DNA of 64,000 bases from an uncultured Gemmataceae bacterium (GTDB lineage Bacteria > Planctomycetota > Planctomycetia > Gemmatales > Gemmataceae). The DNA is taken from assembly GCA_963750165.1 (NCBI GenBank), contig CAVVPN010000011.1:160001-224000 (forward strand). Direction: 5' to 3'. Below, piece after piece: positions 45,789-59,705 of the stretch. Under the pieces are notes generated by a model. The model saw nothing but the letters and a program-made list of their open reading frames with translations. It ran no database searches and was not told the DNA's origin. A program made the position numbers and the translations under genes. The stretch's first letter is position 1. Each line of letters begins with the position of its first letter.

Positions 45789-47618
45789 TCAACCTACCCG
45801 GTAGTGTAACGGTAGCACAAGAGATTTTGGTTCTCTTTGTCCAGGTTCGAATCCTGGCCGGGTAACTTGATGCCTGGAAATGCCAGTCGATGCAACCCGC
45901 TGCACAGTCAGCGGGTTGTGTTGTTCCTGGGCCACCTCTTCTTTCTCCCCTACGGTGCCGGCAGGTGCCGTGAGATGCTTTTGGTTGCACGGAGTTTGTG
46001 CAACCAGTGTGCAACCAACACCGGCGCCATCTGCCCTGAGATCGTCCTTACCCGGCACCGAATGAAAATCGCTCGCGCGAGTTTCTCCCTCTGCATAGCC
46101 AACCGGCCCAGCCGGCCCGATTTGGGTTTCCCTCAGTGTTTTTCCAGGGTTTTCGTGGGTCGGTCGGATTTTCACCGCTGGCCCAACCGGCCCCTGAACC
46201 GGCCGGTCCGTGCCTGTCGCGGCCAGTCGGACGGGCTCCGCCGCCCCGGAGGCGCTGGCCGGAAGGAGGCTCGGCAGCTTCTCGACGGCCCCGGCCAGGT
46301 CGTGCAGTCGTCGGTGCGAATAACGAGCCGTCAACGTCGGCGTCGAGTGCCCGGCCAGTTCTTGCAGGGTCCGCAGGTCGATGCCGGCGCGGCCGCCCAG
46401 CGTCAGGTAGGAGTGGCGCAGGCTATGGAAGTCGGCGAATAGCGGGCCGTCGGCTCCCTCGACGGCGTAGGGGATGCCGGCCGTTTCCAGGTCGGCCCGC
46501 AGCATCTCCGCCGCCACCGAACGCCAGGCGCCGGGCCAGACGGGCAGGGCCCGGGGACGGCCGGCAAGGTAGCCGCGCAGGGTTGCGGCCACGTCGGCGG
46601 GGAGCGGTTGCACTTTTTGCCGCTTGTTCTTCGCCAGCCGCGCGGGCAGCACGACGGCGGGCACGTCGGCGTCGAGATCGAAATCGTTCGGTGTCAGTCC
46701 GGCCAGAGCGCGGGCACGGAAGCCTGTCCCGCACGCCATCAGGTACAGGGCCGCGCGGTCCGATCCGTTCAGCCCTCGGAATACCCGTTCGCTCGCCCCG
46801 GTGACGGCGAGCAATCTGCGGAGTTCATCCGCCGTCAGTTCGCGGCGGTCGTGTCTGCGGTCAGTCGCGGTGTTGAGCAGTGGCAGCCGGTCAAACGGGT
46901 TGGCGGGCAGGCGCTTGCCGGCAAGCCAGCGGCCGAAAGACCGGAGGGCCTGCGCGTTGTGGTTCGCCGTCTGCGGCGAGGCGCCCCGCGAGGCCCGTTC
47001 CAGCAGGGCAAGCACGGTCGCCCGCGGGTAACGGCGTGCGGGGCCTGCCCCGACGGCGGCCAGGCCGTGCCGGCGGATCGCCTTGGTGATTGACATGCGG
47101 CGAATGCCCAGCATCCGGGCCAGTTCCGCCATCGTGAACAACTCTTGCCCGTGGGGCAGTTCGGGGAGTTCGCGGTCGGCTCGCAGGGAAGTCAGCCACC
47201 CGGCGGCCTTGCCGGCGTCGAGGTCGGCCAACCAGATGGCGCCCGTGGCGTCGAAGAATGACCGGAGATGAGCGACCGTCTTTTGAACGTGCTGGGCACA
47301 GTCGCCCTTGGCCTGCAGCGCCGCGGCGAAATCGTCCAGGTGATCGGCCAGCGGCCGCTTGCGGTGTTCCTCGTAGGGGTCGGCCAGGCCGTGCTGACGC
47401 ATGGCGGCGTCGGTCAGCAGTTTGTTGAGCATTTGCTTGCTGCGGGCCAGGTCCGGGCACAGCGGGACGGCCTTACGCTTGCCGTTGGGCAGCGGCACCA
47501 AGCCGTAATACTTGCGCGATTCCTCGACGCGCTTGACGGCGCCGGGCGTGTCCGGGCTGCAGCGTTGCCCGTCCGGTGTGGCGTAGCGGACGGTATGTTT
47601 CTTGAACGGCGTGGCCAC
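45789..47618 (-). CDS. Tyrosine recombinase/integrase with internal HTH insertion
   Basis: GTGFRA (R), AKNK (K), FHSLRH (HxxR), LAGHS (H), ARYSH (Y); adjacent to and overlapping the t[12 protein letters not shown]. Confidence 0.93.
   Translation of the reverse strand: MATPFKKHTVRYATPDGQRCSPDTPGAVKRVEESRKYYGLVPLPNGKRKAVPLCPDLARSKQMLNKLLTDAAMRQHGLADPYEEHRKRPLADHLDDFAAALQAKGDCAQHVQKTVAHLRSFFDATGAIWLADLDAGKAAGWLTSLRADRELPELPHGQELFTMAELARMLGIRRMSITKAIRRHGLAAVGAGPARRYPRATVLALLERASRGASPQTANHNAQALRSFGRWLAGKRLPANPFDRLPLLNTATDRRHDRRELTADELRRLLAVTGASERVFRGLNGSDRAALYLMACGTGFRARALAGLTPNDFDLDADVPAVVLPARLAKNKRQKVQPLPADVAATLRGYLAGRPRALPVWPGAWRSVAAEMLRADLETAGIPYAVEGADGPLFADFHSLRHSYLTLGGRAGIDLRTLQELAGHSTPTLTARYSHRRLHDLAGAVEKLPSLLPASASGAAEPVRLAATGTDRPVQGPVGPAVKIRPTHENPGKTLRETQIGPAGPVGYAEGETRASDFHSVPGKDDLRADGAGVGCTLVAQTPCNQKHLTAPAGTVGEKEEVAQEQHNPLTVQRVASTGISRHQVTRPGFEPGQREPKSLVLPLHYRVG
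45795..45865 (+). tRNA. tRNA-Gln (anticodon UUG)
   Basis: Acceptor TACCCGG/CCGGGTA, D-arm GTGTAACGGTAGCAC, anticodon arm AGAGA-TTTTGGT-TCTCT, T-arm CCAGG-TTCGAAT-CCTGG; CCA not encoded. Confidence 0.95.
45982..46017. promoter_or_regulatory. Putative integrase arm-type binding sites
   Basis: GTGCAACCA direct copies at 45998-46006 and 46009-46017 and an inverted copy at 45982-45990. Confidence 0.55.
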
Positions 47619-49455: not shown

Positions 49456-49787
49456 CGGCCCTCCCCACCGTCCTGGAAAGCGTGTCCGCAGGCCACGCAA
49501 CGCAGGATGAAGTAACTCCCGGTGAGCCTGCCGCAGTCCACGCACAGGCGGTCGAAACACTTCGGGCAGCGCCGGGCCGAGTCCAGCGGCCAGCGGCAGG
49601 CCGGGCAGCGCTCCAGGCAGTCCGGCCCGGTCAACAGGCCGATCAATCCCGCCCGGTGCGCCTGGATCAGTTCAGCCTGCGGGGCGTTCACCAGGAAGGC
49701 CGGCCGCCAGCGCAGCCGGGCGCCGTCCGTATCCAGTTCGACGCCCCGGGAACGGAGGTCCGCCAGCAAGGCGGTTGCTTCGTTCAT
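49452..49787 (-). CDS. TubC-N-like docking domain + Zn-binding protein
   Basis: ALLADLRSRGVELDTDGARLRWRP...LIQAHRAGLIGLL, then CxxC pairs; ATGA-coupled to the primase stop. Confidence 0.65.
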   Translation of the reverse strand: MNEATALLADLRSRGVELDTDGARLRWRPAFLVNAPQAELIQAHRAGLIGLLTGPDCLERCPACRWPLDSARRCPKCFDRLCVDCGRLTGSYFILRCVACGHAFQDGGEGR

Positions 49788-52700
49788 TGCCAGCCCCCCC
49801 ACCCCTCAGATTGCGTCCCAGACAAGATTTCCTCGGCGTTCGTCTCCTCCCCCGGACGAGACCGGCCCTTTCGGCCCACGGGCACGTTTACCTCAAAAAT
49901 GGAAGGGTTGCCGTGGGCCGCTGCGCCGTTCCCGTTACCGTTCCCGGCCCACGGTTTCGGCCCATCCCTGTCGTCGGCCTCGTCCTCCGGGCCGGTTGGG
50001 CCGGTTGTCGGCGCGGGGGGCAAGCCAGCCCACGCGATGTGCAGCACGTCGCGGCGGGCGCCCTGCAGCGTCTTGCGAACCGTCAACTTCTTCCGCGTCG
50101 TGTCCGTCGTGGCCAATAGCTCCTGTTCCTTCAGGCGTCGGCGGAGGGTGTGCGGCGTGATGCTGAAACAGTCGTTCTGGTCGCGGGCGAACTGCTGCAC
50201 GGCCGCGAAACTCGCGTCCGGCTCCAGGTACAATTCTCCGTCCGCCAGCCAGCCGACGCACACCCGCTGCGGCTTGTACCGGGTTTCGGTGCTCTCGCCG
50301 GTGTAATACTTCTCGGGCCGCCAACCCCAGCGCTGCGGCTCGGCGGGTTGGTTGCCGTCCTGGTCGGCGACGTGGGCGTAGCCGCTCGCCACGGCCGCCG
50401 CCAGCAGCCGCAGGAACAGCCCGGCCGGCTCCACGGTGGCGAGTTGGCTTGCCTGGGACGCGCCGGCTTCCGCCAGGGCACCCCATCCCCGTCGCCAGTA
50501 GTCCGCCCGATCCTGCTCCGAAATCGCGCCCACGGCCCGCGCGTAGTCGAGCAAGTAGCGCAGGCCGAGGGCCAGGTCGGCGACGATGCCCGGGGTCCGG
50601 GCGTGTTGCCCCGCGCTCCGGGCCTGGTCCCGCAGCTGCGCCAGTTCGTTCCGCAGCCGTGCGCGCACCGCTTCATACTGCGGCGCCAGCCAGCAGAGGA
50701 AACCGGCCAGGGCCGCGGCGTACAGCCCGGCGGCCGCGTCGCGCTGGCAGGCGCTCAAGGTCGGGTTGGGGTCCGGGGGCAGCGGGCCGAAGTCGCCGGG
50801 GGAGATTTCCAGCACCAGCAGCCGGGCGCGCAGGGACTGGCCGCGGGGCGTATCCTCGCCGGTGGAAAGCGTCAGCCCGCGGGGCGGCTTCGCCGGCCGT
50901 AGCGTGGCGTCGGCCTTCATGCGCTGCCGGCCGGCCCGGTTGCCCTGGCCGCGGAACAGCCGGTCGGCTTCCTTGTGGTAGCGCTGCACGTCGGCAGCTG
51001 ATCCGGTGGGGCAGAAGTCGTCCACGACCAGCAGCGCGTCTTTCGCCGTGAAGGCCAGCCCCTCCAGCGCGTTGCCCGTGGAACTCCAGCTGGCCGGCAG
51101 GTGCCGCGCGTCCATCTCAGGGCCGAAGTGTTGCTGCGCCAGGGCGGCGGCCTCGGACTTGTAACAGCCCGTCGGCCCGGCCAGGTGCAGGGCGAAATCC
51201 GTGGACCCCAGCGCGGCGCGGTAGACCGCGGCCAGCAGCGGGAACGTCAACCGATCCGGGCCGAGCCGCAGCAGCCCCAGGCTGGCCCGAACGGCGCTGG
51301 TGAGTCCGGCCGCCTGTCGCGCCGCGGCGGCACCTAACTCGCCGGTCAGTTGAACGTCACCCGGTTGGAGAAGGGCAAGTGGATGCGGCAGGCGGAAGCC
51401 GGCCAGGGGTTCGGGGAGCGCCACCGGGATGGCGTCGGTCAGCCCGTCCGCGCCGATGGCGCCGCCGGCGTGCAGGTAGAACCAACTCCCGTCGATCTGC
51501 CGCCAGCCGGTGTGCCGGTAGATTGTGCGCCGCGGCACATCGCCGGACAGCAGCTGCAGGGCCGTGCGCAGGTGGTCCTTCGTCCCCATGCCGGCGTAGA
51601 CGACGGCCCGCGTCCCCCAGGCGGGAACGGTCCAGCCCATGCCGGCAAACTCCGCGGCCGGCACCTCAGCCCGCGGCAAGGGCGAGCCGTCGCGCAGCGC
51701 CCCTTGCAAGGCCAGGCTGCGCGCCTGCTCGGCACCGTCGTCGTGAACCACGTCCTCCACGATCCGGGCGGAGAAGTTGCAGAGCGGCACCGGGACCGGG
51801 CCGTCCTTCGTCTGCACGGTGCGGTAGACGCAGCCGTCTTGCTCGAAGTAGGTGGGAGATTCCGCGCCTTCCGCGGGCGCGGCCTGGCGACGGAAGGGCC
51901 GCAATGCTTTGTCCAGGTCGCGGAGGGAAACGCGCTCCCGAATGGACGCGCGAACCGCGGCGAAGCCGGCAGGATCAGCCCCAGCCAGGTCGGCCAGTGC
52001 CTGCATCAACGCCTTGTCGCGGAACAGCGCTTCCGCGCCACCGCCGTCCAGCACGTCCTGCAACCGGGCCAGTTCATCGGGTGGGGCAGGTTCCTCATCC
52101 GCGGTTGCAGCGGCCAGCGTTTCCCGGATCGCCTGCAGCGCGACATCCCCTTGCAGCAGTTCGGGCGCCTTGCCGGCCGCGAGCAGGTCGTCCAGCCCCT
52201 TGCCGTTTGCCCCGTCCCAGCGTTCCAACTCGACGGCAAAGCCGGCGGCGGTCAGGGCATCGGTGCAGGCCAGGAGCGCCCGCGCCACGGTGGGGTTGTC
52301 CCAGGCGTCGGCGTCGAAGGCCAGGCGAACCGTTTTGCAGCCCAACTCCTTCAGCACGGCCAGCGCCGGCCGCCAGTTGGTCGCGCCGGGGACGGAGAGC
52401 GTCGGCACGCCAGTTCGGGCCTGGGTAACATCAGCCTTCAGTTCGCCTTCGGTCAGTCGCGCCAACTCGGCCGCCTCGGGAGTTCCCAAGGGGACGTGAA
52501 TCGGAGAACCCGGCCCTGGGCCGCCATGCCCCGCGGAAGAAACGTAGACGTAGCGGCGGTTCTTTTCGTCCGCGTCGTCTCTGCGCACCTTGAGGGCGAT
52601 GATTCGCCCGGTGCGGTCGCGGCACGGGACGATTAACCCGACCGGGCCGCGCAGCGTCAGGTAGTGGCCCGACGGCCCTTCTTTGACCACGACGCCCGGC

Positions 52701-53143
52701 ACGCGCAACAGCTTGTCCCCGAAGCGCTCGCGCAGCTCCCGGACGACCCGCGGCCGCCCCTGGCGTGACAGTGTGCCGTACCCGGCCTTGTCGATTACCT
52801 CATCCGTCAGGCCCCGCCGTTGCAGCGCTTCACGGTGCGCCTTGCTGAGCGGCAGCCGGGCCAGCAGTGCCGAGTAGACCTCGTGCAACGTGTCGGCGTC
52901 CGCCCGCTTCGCTTCCGGCCCCGGCCGCGGTGTGGGCGCGGCCTCGGGCCGCGGGCCGTCCGCCAGGCGGTGGAGGAAGTAGCGGGCGCCGTTGCTGTCT
53001 TCCTTCGAGCGAAAGCTGCCGTCCTCGACGCGCATGCACTTGCAGACGGCCCCGTCCGCCGTAACGCTGCACCAATCCGCACACCCGCAGACGGGACAAG
53101 GGGCGGCCCGAGAAACCCGGACCCAGTTGCGTTTCGTGTTCAC
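49784..53143 (-). CDS. Primase-helicase (Zn finger + TOPRIM/DUF3854-like + DUF927-like + P-loop ATPase)
   Basis: CPVC..DWC; LTEGELKAD and AFDAD (TOPRIM); LCNFSARIVED, HTGWR; Walker A GPTGCYKS; Walker B LLVVDD; LSTGE. Confidence 0.85.
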   Translation of the reverse strand: MNTKRNWVRVSRAAPCPVCGCADWCSVTADGAVCKCMRVEDGSFRSKEDSNGARYFLHRLADGPRPEAAPTPRPGPEAKRADADTLHEVYSALLARLPLSKAHREALQRRGLTDEVIDKAGYGTLSRQGRPRVVRELRERFGDKLLRVPGVVVKEGPSGHYLTLRGPVGLIVPCRDRTGRIIALKVRRDDADEKNRRYVYVSSAGHGGPGPGSPIHVPLGTPEAAELARLTEGELKADVTQARTGVPTLSVPGATNWRPALAVLKELGCKTVRLAFDADAWDNPTVARALLACTDALTAAGFAVELERWDGANGKGLDDLLAAGKAPELLQGDVALQAIRETLAAATADEEPAPPDELARLQDVLDGGGAEALFRDKALMQALADLAGADPAGFAAVRASIRERVSLRDLDKALRPFRRQAAPAEGAESPTYFEQDGCVYRTVQTKDGPVPVPLCNFSARIVEDVVHDDGAEQARSLALQGALRDGSPLPRAEVPAAEFAGMGWTVPAWGTRAVVYAGMGTKDHLRTALQLLSGDVPRRTIYRHTGWRQIDGSWFYLHAGGAIGADGLTDAIPVALPEPLAGFRLPHPLALLQPGDVQLTGELGAAAARQAAGLTSAVRASLGLLRLGPDRLTFPLLAAVYRAALGSTDFALHLAGPTGCYKSEAAALAQQHFGPEMDARHLPASWSSTGNALEGLAFTAKDALLVVDDFCPTGSAADVQRYHKEADRLFRGQGNRAGRQRMKADATLRPAKPPRGLTLSTGEDTPRGQSLRARLLVLEISPGDFGPLPPDPNPTLSACQRDAAAGLYAAALAGFLCWLAPQYEAVRARLRNELAQLRDQARSAGQHARTPGIVADLALGLRYLLDYARAVGAISEQDRADYWRRGWGALAEAGASQASQLATVEPAGLFLRLLAAAVASGYAHVADQDGNQPAEPQRWGWRPEKYYTGESTETRYKPQRVCVGWLADGELYLEPDASFAAVQQFARDQNDCFSITPHTLRRRLKEQELLATTDTTRKKLTVRKTLQGARRDVLHIAWAGLPPAPTTGPTGPEDEADDRDGPKPWAGNGNGNGAAAHGNPSIFEVNVPVGRKGRSRPGEETNAEEILSGTQSEGWGGWQ

Positions 53144-53221
53144 GTCTGGTAAACTCTCGTGTGGGTATCAAGCCTGTTCGGTGATGCGCCCAGCGATCTT
53201 CGCTGGGCGTGTCCGTTTCGT

Positions 53222-53289
53222 TGGGGCGGCCGGAAGTCGAACCGGAGAACAGGGGTATCAAGCCCGCTCGGCGACCACGCACCCACCCC
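53222..53289 (-). ncRNA. tRNA-like cloverleaf (not a canonical tRNA)
   Basis: GGGGUGG/CCGCCCC acceptor, GCG-UGGU-CGC mini D-arm, GAGCGGG-CUUGAUACC-CCUGUUC arm, CCGG-UUCGACUU-CCGG T-arm. Confidence 0.6.
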
Positions 53290-53308
53290 ACAATGCACTT
53301 TCTCGAAC

Positions 53309-53590
53309 TCAACGTTTGGCGGCCTGTTTTTGCAGAACGGCCCATCGGTCGTGGTCGGGCAAGCCGGCCCGCACCCATTCGCGCACGACTTCGGTCTGAA
53401 ACAGCACGCGCCGGCCCGCGACTACGCGACCGGGGATGTCGCGCGCGGCGTCCATGCGTCGCAACGTTCGGACCCCAAGGCCGGTCAGGGTGGCAAGTTC
53501 GGCAACGTCCACTAACAACTTGTCTGCCAGCGAGAGAACCGGGGCCTTGTCCTCCGACGGCGCGGTAAAGGGAATGATGTCAGTCGGCAT
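53309..53590 (-). CDS. AlpA/excisionase-like HTH protein
   Basis: LLVDVAELATLTGLGVRTLRRMDAARDIP...GRRVLF..EVVREWVRAG. Confidence 0.85.
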   Translation of the reverse strand: MPTDIIPFTAPSEDKAPVLSLADKLLVDVAELATLTGLGVRTLRRMDAARDIPGRVVAGRRVLFQTEVVREWVRAGLPDHDRWAVLQKQAAKR

Positions 53591-53765: not shown

Positions 53766-53884
53766 GGTGCCTCCAGAACAAGGGGGTCTTGATCTGGAGG
53801 CAGTATGACTGAAGCGCCGCCGACGAACCAACGACGCTATCTGTCGGTTTGATCGTCGGTGAATCGTCGGCGGCTCGTCCGGCG

Positions 53885-57036: not shown

Positions 57037-57596
57037 TGTGCCCCCTACGAAATAATGGCCGTAAACTCGGGCGAAATGCGTTCCGGAATTCGCCCGCCCG
57101 GATACCCCAGGTTCGTTCCCCGGCCATCCTACCCGGGAGCCGGCCGGAAGGAAAGCCAAAATCGCTGCCAGCCGTCCAGGACTCCTGAACGGGTGTTCCT
57201 GCTCGCCAACCGACGGGCGCAGCCGAGTCCCGGGGACACCGCCTGCACCCGGCCCCGGCCTGAGCCGGCGCGGCCGCCCACCAGGACAGGCGAAGGGGCA
57301 GACGAGGCACCGACACCTTCACCGTGGGTGCGCTTCGCCGCAGTGGTGACGCCCGGTCCCGATTTTCCCCTGGACACCGCGCGGCGGGTGGGATACACCA
57401 AGAGCGGTTCACTACGGCACCCCCGGCCTTGACGTGGGCCGCCTGGGTGTCAACCGCCCCCCAGTGGGTGCCAGTGCAGATGACGAGTCGTTCAGCCGTC
57501 ACGTCCGCGTCGGGCGTGACGATCTTCGGTTTTGGAGGGTGGAATTCCGGAACACATTTCAGCCCCAAGCGCGGCCATTATTTCGTAGGGGGCACA
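57037..57596. mobile_element. 560-bp non-autonomous element (MITE) with TGT...ACA ends (type B)
   Basis: 25-bp perfect TIR TGTGCCCCCTACGAAATAATGGCCG, plus a second box GAAATG(C/T)GTTCCGGAATTC at both ends. Confidence 0.88.
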
Positions 57597-58529: not shown

Positions 58530-59705
58530 ATGCGTTACATCATTATCAGCATGGCAACCGTGCTTAGCATGAATGCAGGTTTGTGCTGCATTTTTCAAAG
58601 CAATGCCGATTCCGATCAGAAACCACAAAACCAAGTAGATCGACAAAAGGCTCCCCCAAAGGGGCGAGCGGATCAGGAAAAGATCCCGCCGAAAGAACCA
58701 TCAGATATGGTTCTGAAAAAACTTGGGTTTTGGGTGGTTGGGAACCCGGTGACCGCCGTCAGTCATGCGGAAAGCACTGTTGGCGACGCCGCACTCGCAC
58801 ACCTCGCGGCATTCCCCAGGCTCAGGACTTTGTCGCTAGATACCATGTGGAACATCACTAGCAACGGTCTGAAATATCTGGAGAATTGCAACAGATTGCG
58901 AGAGTTGCGCTTAGAACATATGAAGAAAATCGACGACGAGGGCATGAAATACGTTGCCCGATTGACGAAACTTCGAGAATTGAGCCTTTGGGAAACCTCC
59001 GTCGGCGATGAGGGAGTGAAAAGACTGAGCCGCTTGGTGGAACTGGAATCCCTTAATCTTGGCTGGACGAAAGTCACCGACGAGGGCTTGACCCAGTTGG
59101 CCAATTGCATCAAACTAAAAGAAGTGAGTTTGCCCGGAACGGGCATCACAGACCGTTGCATGCCTACCATCAACCGCTGGATAAACTTGGAGTCCCTTTC
59201 CATCTACAAAACCAACATTACGGACGACGGCTTGTTGGAGTTGAAGGATATGAAAAGGATTTATTTCCTTTGGATTCCCTCGTCGGTAGGAGATCGTGGT
59301 TTTCAACATCTTTGCGAATTCTCGTCTTTGCGTATCCTTACAGCGGACGGCACTCGGATCACGAACCAAGGGTTGATACACCTAAGGAAACTGCCGAAAC
59401 TTGAACAGTTGTCCTTAGGCAAAACGCCCATTGATGGAAACGGTTTGAGGCACCTCGCTAATTGTTTGAGACTGCGCAAATTAAACTTGTCCGGGACGAA
59501 GATCACGGATGTTTCTTTGTCGCATTTGAAGCCCCTTACGAGTCTCGAATCCCTCGATCTCAATGACACTAATATTTCTGATGAAGGGTTGGCTCATCTC
59601 GAGCAGTTGCACAATTTGAAAGAACTCTGGTTTCAACATAGGAAGATTTCAGAGAAAACGGTCCAGAAGTTAACAAAAAAGTTGCCGGGGCTGTTGATTC
59701 ACTAG
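58530..59705 (+). CDS. Exported leucine-rich repeat protein (candidate immunity)
   Basis: N-terminal hydrophobic signal and about 12 repeats of LxxLxLxxTxITDxGLxxL; low GC like the toxin. Confidence 0.88.
   Translation: MRYIIISMATVLSMNAGLCCIFQSNADSDQKPQNQVDRQKAPPKGRADQEKIPPKEPSDMVLKKLGFWVVGNPVTAVSHAESTVGDAALAHLAAFPRLRTLSLDTMWNITSNGLKYLENCNRLRELRLEHMKKIDDEGMKYVARLTKLRELSLWETSVGDEGVKRLSRLVELESLNLGWTKVTDEGLTQLANCIKLKEVSLPGTGITDRCMPTINRWINLESLSIYKTNITDDGLLELKDMKRIYFLWIPSSVGDRGFQHLCEFSSLRILTADGTRITNQGLIHLRKLPKLEQLSLGKTPIDGNGLRHLANCLRLRKLNLSGTKITDVSLSHLKPLTSLESLDLNDTNISDEGLAHLEQLHNLKELWFQHRKISEKTVQKLTKKLPGLLIH

Follow-up and report, generated by a model that had tools for sequence, protein, structure and literature searches.

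What does a tRNA-shaped sequence, followed by a second copy of its own anticodon loop, do between the excisionase and primase genes of a mobile element? The question arises from the DNA of an uncultured Gemmataceae bacterium, which we analysed over a stretch of 64,000 nucleotides, called the window below. An earlier note on the same DNA had likened this segment to the C4 and CI immunity RNAs of P1 and P4 and had proposed an RNA switch or processed small RNA controlling the replication gene. Its picture holds in part: the excisionase-primase operon of an integrative element does contain a conserved tRNA-shaped RNA, and antisense control plays a role, judging from a predicted promoter, a predicted terminator and a complementary copy. 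The segment is a real and apparently undescribed cassette of two RNAs, with a logic other than the one first proposed.

The tRNA-like gene and its host element

On the minus strand of the window, an excisionase-like HTH_17 gene (53309..53590) ends 19 nt before a tRNA-like gene of 68 nt (53222..53289), and a primase-helicase-type gene of 1119 aa with DUF3854 and DUF927 (49784..53143) lies downstream. Every part of the cloverleaf, hairpin and loop repeat first described from this strand was found in place. The tRNA-like gene is composed of a 7-bp acceptor (53289-53283/53229-53223) with the top pairs G1-C72, G2-C71 and G3-C70, a 3-bp mini D-arm (53280-53271), an extended anticodon-like arm (53269-53247), a T-arm (53245-53230) and A73 at 53222, with no encoded CCA. 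The middle arm, which is also the target of the antisense RNA predicted below, carries the loop UU-GAU-AC; in the register of the family, assigned by eye, its anticodon is GAU (Ile, 53259-53257). The combination of a short D-stem and a long anticodon stem recalls the geometry of mitochondrial tRNA-Ser and tRNA-Pyl. A perfect hairpin follows at 53209-53187.

The loop motif does recur at 53174-53163, but the repeat is longer than the earlier note had it: the 19 nt of 53271-53253 return at 53181-53163, at a period of 90 nt and with G>A changes at two positions. The direct copy (53163..53181, minus strand) thus takes in not only the loop but also the middle arm's 5' strand, and would be the template of the 5' seed of the antisense RNA. 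The repeated 12-mer occurs twice in the 9.6-Mb genome, both times in the module, and within the element the loop 9-mer has same-sense occurrences only.

Taken alone, the fold of the window sequence is weak evidence (z = -1.78), and its minimum free energy structure is not the cloverleaf but one better by 2.7 kcal/mol (-33.4 vs -30.7). ARAGORN did not call the tRNA-like gene in the window. No family of Rfam, whether C4-type, tRNA or other, reached the gathering threshold for the module of the window or of 14 member loci, and for the window module the E-value mode returned nothing above chance level. The best match within the tRNA clan was tRNA-Sec, with 15.6 bits and an E-value of 6.3. A canonical tRNA gene, with a standard D-arm and a 5-bp anticodon stem, was considered and rejected, both ARAGORN and Rfam being silent on the module in the window. 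That the structure goes beyond chance therefore follows from the homologues, namely from 24 loci, their covariation and the helices recovered de novo.

A GTG ORF of 52 codons (53140-53298, minus strand) spans the module, and its stop coincides with the start codon of the primase. We discarded the idea that the module encodes a conserved peptide, since homologues carry frame-breaking indels of 1-2 nt and the 52-codon ORF has no Pfam hit.

The host element is a tyrosine-integrase island at a tRNA gene. Its integrase ORF (45789..47618, minus strand) lies beside the attachment site, a tRNA-Gln(TTG) gene (45795..45866, plus strand), and 45 bp of the 3' part of this tRNA are repeated about 19.8 kb away, past the window end. 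A link of the module to the attachment tRNA was rejected, as that tRNA is a tRNA-Gln and lies about 7 kb from the module. The integrase ORF (45789-47618) carries an excisionase-type HTH_17 domain N-terminal of the catalytic domain. A possible operon promoter, TTGGTT-18-CATACT, was located by eye within 53802-53879 of the minus strand; it is overlapped by a 26-nt inverted repeat, and an unnamed ORF of 84 codons lies downstream. The island cargo includes a MITE-like segment of 560 bp with perfect 25-nt inverted repeats at its ends (57037-57596) and a low-GC leucine-rich-repeat gene (58530-59705), behind which lie insertion-sequence genes.

Homologues and alanine identity marks

The first two homologues came from primase neighbourhoods and, together with the window, served to build a covariance model of the tRNA-like part and the hairpin, from which the copy was left out. 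This model gave 84 matches in 151 genomes of the window's family, and 50 of these were inspected. The best 12 of the 50, two of them training sequences, have an exact downstream copy of 10-22 nt. In the other 38 the copy does not exceed 8 nt, and 34 of these 38 are ARAGORN tRNAs. Further search rounds led to 24 loci in 20 planctomycete genomes, all of the window's phylum, and the arm/loop copy is present in 23 of them. ARAGORN calls two of the members scanned, L419 and L481.

The family is diverse, with a median pairwise identity of 58% over 175 nt and 16 clusters for 22 loci. Both structure and compensatory pairing were found in the homologues. In a model-fitted alignment of 15 members, covariation extends to all five helices: 95.7% of the cells pair and 19 of the 30 pairs change on both sides, values that the model fit inflates. 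The D-arm is the weakest helix there, with 86.8% paired. In an unfitted alignment of 20 members, RNAalifold recovered the anticodon arm, the T-arm and the hairpin de novo, with two-sided changes at 12/20 pairs.

An HTH_17 gene adjoins the module in 20/24 loci (E <= 0.01, among the ORFs submitted). The downstream replication genes differ, including DUF3854, D5, Prim-Pol, Toprim, AAA_25 and DUF3987 types, which indicates that the cassette moves between replicon types. It is also optional: in the five closest relatives of the window primase (L001, L002, L004, L010 and L019) the excisionase gene abuts the primase gene with no module between them. Many of the best matches of this primase come from Gemmataceae or other Planctomycetota, which points to a planctomycete host. 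Among 200 primase loci, the covariance model R2 found the module in three, two of which are identical in sequence. Two further loci hold other tRNA or tRNA-like sequences between excisionase and primase, with no downstream copy: a tRNA-Thr(GGT) called by ARAGORN (L011:2776-2848) and a degenerate cloverleaf (L006, about 2890-2965). This slot seems to collect tRNA genes.

Searches farther afield brought no member among the matches listed for five DNA patterns in a viral collection, nor in 23 viral primase loci scanned with model R2. A D-arm pattern run on 252 genomes recovered only the window and L389, among the 30 of 45 matches with loci. In 151 genomes around a Myxococcota record nothing exceeded 38 bits and the best match was a plain tRNA, while four single genomes outside the phylum gave no match above 34 bits. 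Since these genome searches score 20-48 candidates per genome and missed the known member L481 once, they do not establish absence. A loose scan for a cloverleaf plus repeat gave noisy output.

The acceptor carries a nearly constant set of marks. G1-C72 and G2-C71 occur in 24/24 members and G3·U70 in 22/24, whereas compensatory swaps are seen at pairs 4-7. The alignments show no base other than A at position 73. The full alanine-identity motif (G3·U70, G1-C72, G2-C71, A73) is thus found in 22/24 members; G3·U70 is absent from L394 and from the window copy, which has G3-C70. G3:U70 is the main determinant for alanyl-tRNA synthetase (PMC5389517), and in the host, 7 of 97 tRNA calls have G3·U70, five of these being tRNA-Ala. 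By contrast, the anticodons vary, with GTC in 11 members, CCT in five, GCT and GAC in two each, and GAT, TCT, CTC and TTA in one each. An alanine anticodon (NGC) was seen in 0/24 members, a lack that is not significant alone with eight anticodon types. These anticodons depend on a register assigned by eye, which about six members leave ambiguous. U33 is kept in 21/24 and a purine at position 37 in 22/24, and several anticodon loops, again by eye, close at 8-9 nt. The canonical GTTCRA T-loop is present in only 15/24; these non-canonical T-loops, together with the tiny and weak D-arm, make use by the ribosome uncertain.

The window copy shares its top three pairs, A73 and the GAU anticodon with the host tRNA-Ile(GAT). 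It may thus receive the right amino acid or none, although as a single case the match may be due to chance. With G3-C70 and an isoleucine anticodon, it may represent a defused member of the family. A different solitary form was noted at L483:860-927 (G389). This mini-tRNA has G3·U70, but its 2.5-kb locus contains no copy and no excisionase was detected near it; its loop may read as an ochre-suppressor anticodon.

A predicted antisense RNA read from the copy

The earlier note had seen direct copies of the loop and no antisense copy. The copy, however, is the template of a predicted opposite-strand RNA equipped with a separate promoter and terminator. The invariant alignment columns past the copy, when read in the antisense direction, correspond to a -10 box and, 17 nt further, to TTG. 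In the window, the predicted sigma70-type promoter (53127..53155, plus strand) consists of a -35 box TTGCGT (53127-53132), a 17-nt spacer containing the primase start codon, and a -10 box TAAACT (53150-53155). With a start placed 7 nt after the -10 box, the antisense RNA would measure about 60 nt (53162..53221, plus strand). It would end at a predicted intrinsic terminator (53183..53221, plus strand; stem 53183-53213) with a T-rich tail, which is the hairpin of the earlier note on the other strand; T-rich tails behind the hairpin are also found in homologues.

A key score over six promoter positions was 6/6 in 16/21 members and 5/6 in the remaining five. In the controls, 6/6 was reached by 2/92 non-member matches, 81/4200 shuffles and 0/21 sense strands. 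A generic promoter scan with a threshold of 9/12 consensus matches reported no promoter in the window, the predicted site having 7/12, and the same scan detected the hairpin as a plus-strand terminator. The end of the -10 box lies 2-11 nt before the complement of loop position 38, so that the antisense RNA would start on the anti-anticodon. For the tRNA-like gene itself, an own sense promoter was not found, key score 6 occurring in 0/23.

The copy follows the arm closely. In 21 members, 261/294 positions are identical, and at arm positions 31-36 there is no difference at all, though seven anticodons occur among these members. At 24 of the 33 differences the arm has G and the copy A, and the reverse change is seen once; when each cluster is represented by a single member, G>A makes up 15/20. 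Stem changes concern 27/105 positions with G in the arm and 6/84 with other bases. Such G>A changes in the copy leave a tolerated U·G wobble in the arm-antisense duplex, which in the window amounts to -44.4 kcal/mol over 24 nt. On these sequence grounds, the copy is selected for RNA pairing with the arm.

The antisense unit also goes with the tRNA-like gene, promoter and terminator being found together in 16/21 members vs 5/135 primase loci without it. Since the unit rarely accompanies a primase alone, control of the primase by the cassette is not favoured. The five exceptional loci (L050, L113, L114, L120 and L196) have the two antisense signals at a distance of 18-182 nt before the primase start, with no upstream copy above 9 nt, and possibly exert a simpler antisense control. 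A member with a degenerate D-arm, L543, keeps an exact copy and the -10 box with a poor -35 box.

Possible functions of the cassette

We see roughly even chances that the cassette is an RNA-only pair of a mistranslating mini-tRNA as toxin and an antisense RNA as antitoxin, a reading drawn from sequence features. In this scheme, the early operon with excisionase and primase would transcribe a mini-tRNA derived from tRNA-Ala, which host RNase P, 3' trimming and CCA addition would set free. By the known identity rules, alanyl-tRNA synthetase would charge it through G3·U70 and A73 regardless of the anticodon. With a non-alanine anticodon, often in a loop of 8-9 nt, it would insert alanine at Asp, Arg, Ser, Glu or Val codons or disturb the frame, and either effect could slow or kill the cell. 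The predicted opposite-strand RNA of about 60 nt, beginning with the complement of the anticodon loop, would invade the 5' strand of the arm and so neutralise the mini-tRNA. In the resting element it would cover leaky expression, and toxicity would appear upon induction of the operon or when the antisense RNA is lost, through loss of the element or shut-off by a phage. Since the mRNA overlapped by the antisense RNA offers it full complementarity in any case, the extra match to the arm would be needed mainly if the tRNA-like RNA is cut free. On the other hand, the tRNA-like gene lacks a separate promoter, which sits badly with addiction unless transcription of the operon is leaky. G3·U70 may be a legacy of descent from tRNA-Ala or may do no more than add stability, and some irregular tRNAs are charged yet not translated (PMC5389517).

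A bolder version, to which we give only tentative credence, is a programmable mistranslation weapon. The anticodon of alanine-charged mini-tRNAs would be exchangeable between types for Asp, Arg, Ser, Glu, Val and Ile, with a fitting anti-anticodon RNA for every one, so that after phage shut-off or loss of the element the antidote would decay and the code would be corrupted. AGG and AGA codons are rare in the host (3.2 and 1.1 per 1000), and Arg versions might thus strike foreign genes first.

The same complementarity and wobble bias would also be explained if an antisense immunity RNA repressed the operon by pairing with the overlapped mRNA just upstream of the next gene, and if the processed, alanylated and stable mini-tRNA soaked up this RNA after induction, giving positive feedback into replication with the variable loop defining immunity groups. 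We regard this, the main rival reading, as rather unlikely, although several observations suit it. The cognate duplex is the best one in 16/21 members (mean -39 vs -23 kcal/mol), a result in part built into the comparison; a sponge would also account for the relaxed T- and D-loops, for the 2/24 members without G3·U70 and for the early-operon position; and the five module-less primase loci with an antisense promoter and terminator have no counterpart with a sense one. However, that unit is rare where the tRNA-like gene is missing, the closest primase relatives lack any module, and the predicted RNA ends upstream of the next start codon, which in L389 is far away. A harmless charged sponge would moreover be expected to have an alanine anticodon or to have lost U33 or purine 37, and none reads NGC. 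The toxin reading is favoured over the sponge because the antisense unit follows the tRNA-like gene and because alanine identity combined with a foreign anticodon does mistranslate in the case of allo-tRNAs in E. coli, while the sponge stays in contention since the tRNA-like gene lacks a separate promoter and its T- and D-loops are relaxed.

Regulation acting on the nascent transcript or on the DNA was weighed against the same data. The antisense RNA could bind both the nascent cloverleaf and the downstream copy and cause termination or RNase III cleavage before the primase, the tRNA shape merely presenting the loop. Two targets per transcript would mirror P4 CI at seqA and seqC (PMC4825925), and the cassette does lie upstream of several kinds of replication gene. 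Such attenuation nevertheless appears improbable: it leaves the conservation of G3·U70 and A73 unexplained, the generic scan found no sense-strand terminator, and, a fully complementary cis site being available, a second one adds little unless the tRNA is released. The cis switch of the earlier note, in which the downstream copy takes the place of the arm's 5' strand and alters primase expression, drew on the window, where the copy pairs slightly better than the native strand (-11.0 vs -10.3 kcal/mol). The window is the only member of this kind, the copy pairing worse in 16/21 and equally in four, as its G>A changes weaken cis pairing with the 3' strand of the arm. RNAalifold does not predict the alternative helix, and neither the exact loop copy nor the antisense promoter would be explained, so that we hold this switch to be hardly credible. 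Excisionase genes are often flanked by direct repeats, and attachment sites often hold tRNA fragments; the repeat might accordingly be a protein operator or an integration scar beside a decayed tRNA. This is very improbable, given the strand-specific G>A bias, the compensatory pairing, the promoter and terminator at a fixed distance, and an attachment site at a different tRNA 7 kb off.

Among the closest known systems are the allo-tRNAs of Mukai et al. (PMC5389517), which likewise combine a fixed Ser or Ala identity with diverse non-cognate anticodons, including GUC and readers of AGA/AGG. In E. coli, those with G3:U70 insert alanine, and those that insert serine and have Leu anticodons are lethal; the paper reports missense suppression as well as cell death, and a location near toxin-antitoxin genes (PMC5389517). 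Their acceptor branch is 8/4 or 9/3, and both the variable arm and the D-stem are long (PMC5389517). The family differs, with 66-73 nt, a mostly 7/5 branch (7-bp acceptor, 4-5-bp T-stem), no variable arm and a D-stem of 3-4 bp, and was therefore not assigned to them. The main text of that paper does not contain the word 'antisense' (PMC5389517). Variants of tRNA-Pro in Streptomyces and Kitasatospora also join one amino-acid identity to another anticodon and cause growth defects in E. coli; they differ in their proline identity and in lying beside a dedicated synthetase, and their abstract makes no mention of antisense control (PMC10404621). The tRNA-Other of Bacillus cereus is, similarly, an island-linked tRNA-like element with a new job, but it acts outside translation as part of a longer regulatory RNA, and its abstract mentions no paired antisense gene (PMC3399842).

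P4 CI (PMC4825925) and P1/P7 C4 (PMC11143913) resemble the cassette as small structured RNAs in the early replication operon of a mobile element that involve antisense pairing with repeated sites, and C4 is an RNase P substrate (PMC11143913). The roles are inverted, however: there the processed RNA is the antisense agent (PMC4825925, PMC11143913, PMC2864571), whereas in the cassette the tRNA-like RNA shares the sense of the repeat and would be targeted by an RNA from another promoter. Membership in C4/CI was rejected, with no C4-type match in Rfam, cis complementarity that is not conserved and a loop 9-mer in the same sense only.

Toxin-antitoxin type VIII calls for two non-coding RNA genes, one complementary to the other, and for a toxic RNA that its partner neutralises. 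At the level of sequence the cassette has the two complementary genes; if it is toxic, it would work like such a pair. To our knowledge, neither toxin of the type VIII systems SdsR-RyeA and CreTA is a tRNA. In both of these systems the two partners are RNAs, as proposed here (PMC10767807), and CreA acts via a CRISPR effector (PMC9458426). SdsR and RyeA are encoded on opposite strands, as in the cassette, and overlap, whereas here the antisense RNA adjoins the tRNA-like gene and matches it through a duplicated segment of 12-22 nt (PMC10767807).

Neither Rfam 15 nor the literature, as covered by titles and abstract openings of mostly open papers, yielded a tRNA-like RNA paired with an anti-anticodon RNA; supplementary motif collections could hold the family. 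If the mini-tRNA is charged and decodes, it would offer a reason for natural mistranslating tRNAs, an open question since the allo-tRNAs were described, and would show how a cell carries one safely. A tRNA toxin with an anti-tRNA antitoxin would then join the few RNA-only toxin-antitoxin systems. Should the mini-tRNA instead be a sponge, a new control circuit of integrative elements would still result. The cassette also bears on the minimum D-arm size that the bacterial ribosome accepts, and its 170 bp occur as natural cognate and non-cognate pairs.

One cassette has itself been invaded. In L510 (about 300-2260, G199:C2), a group II intron encoding a reverse transcriptase of 433 aa lies in antisense orientation, immediately after the hairpin and a run of eight T; beyond the intron, the copy and the promoter are intact. 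This position adds to the signs that the hairpin is a terminator. Insertion behind terminators or comparable stem-loops is typical of class IIC introns (PMC1702495), and judging from its target site the intron probably belongs to that class.
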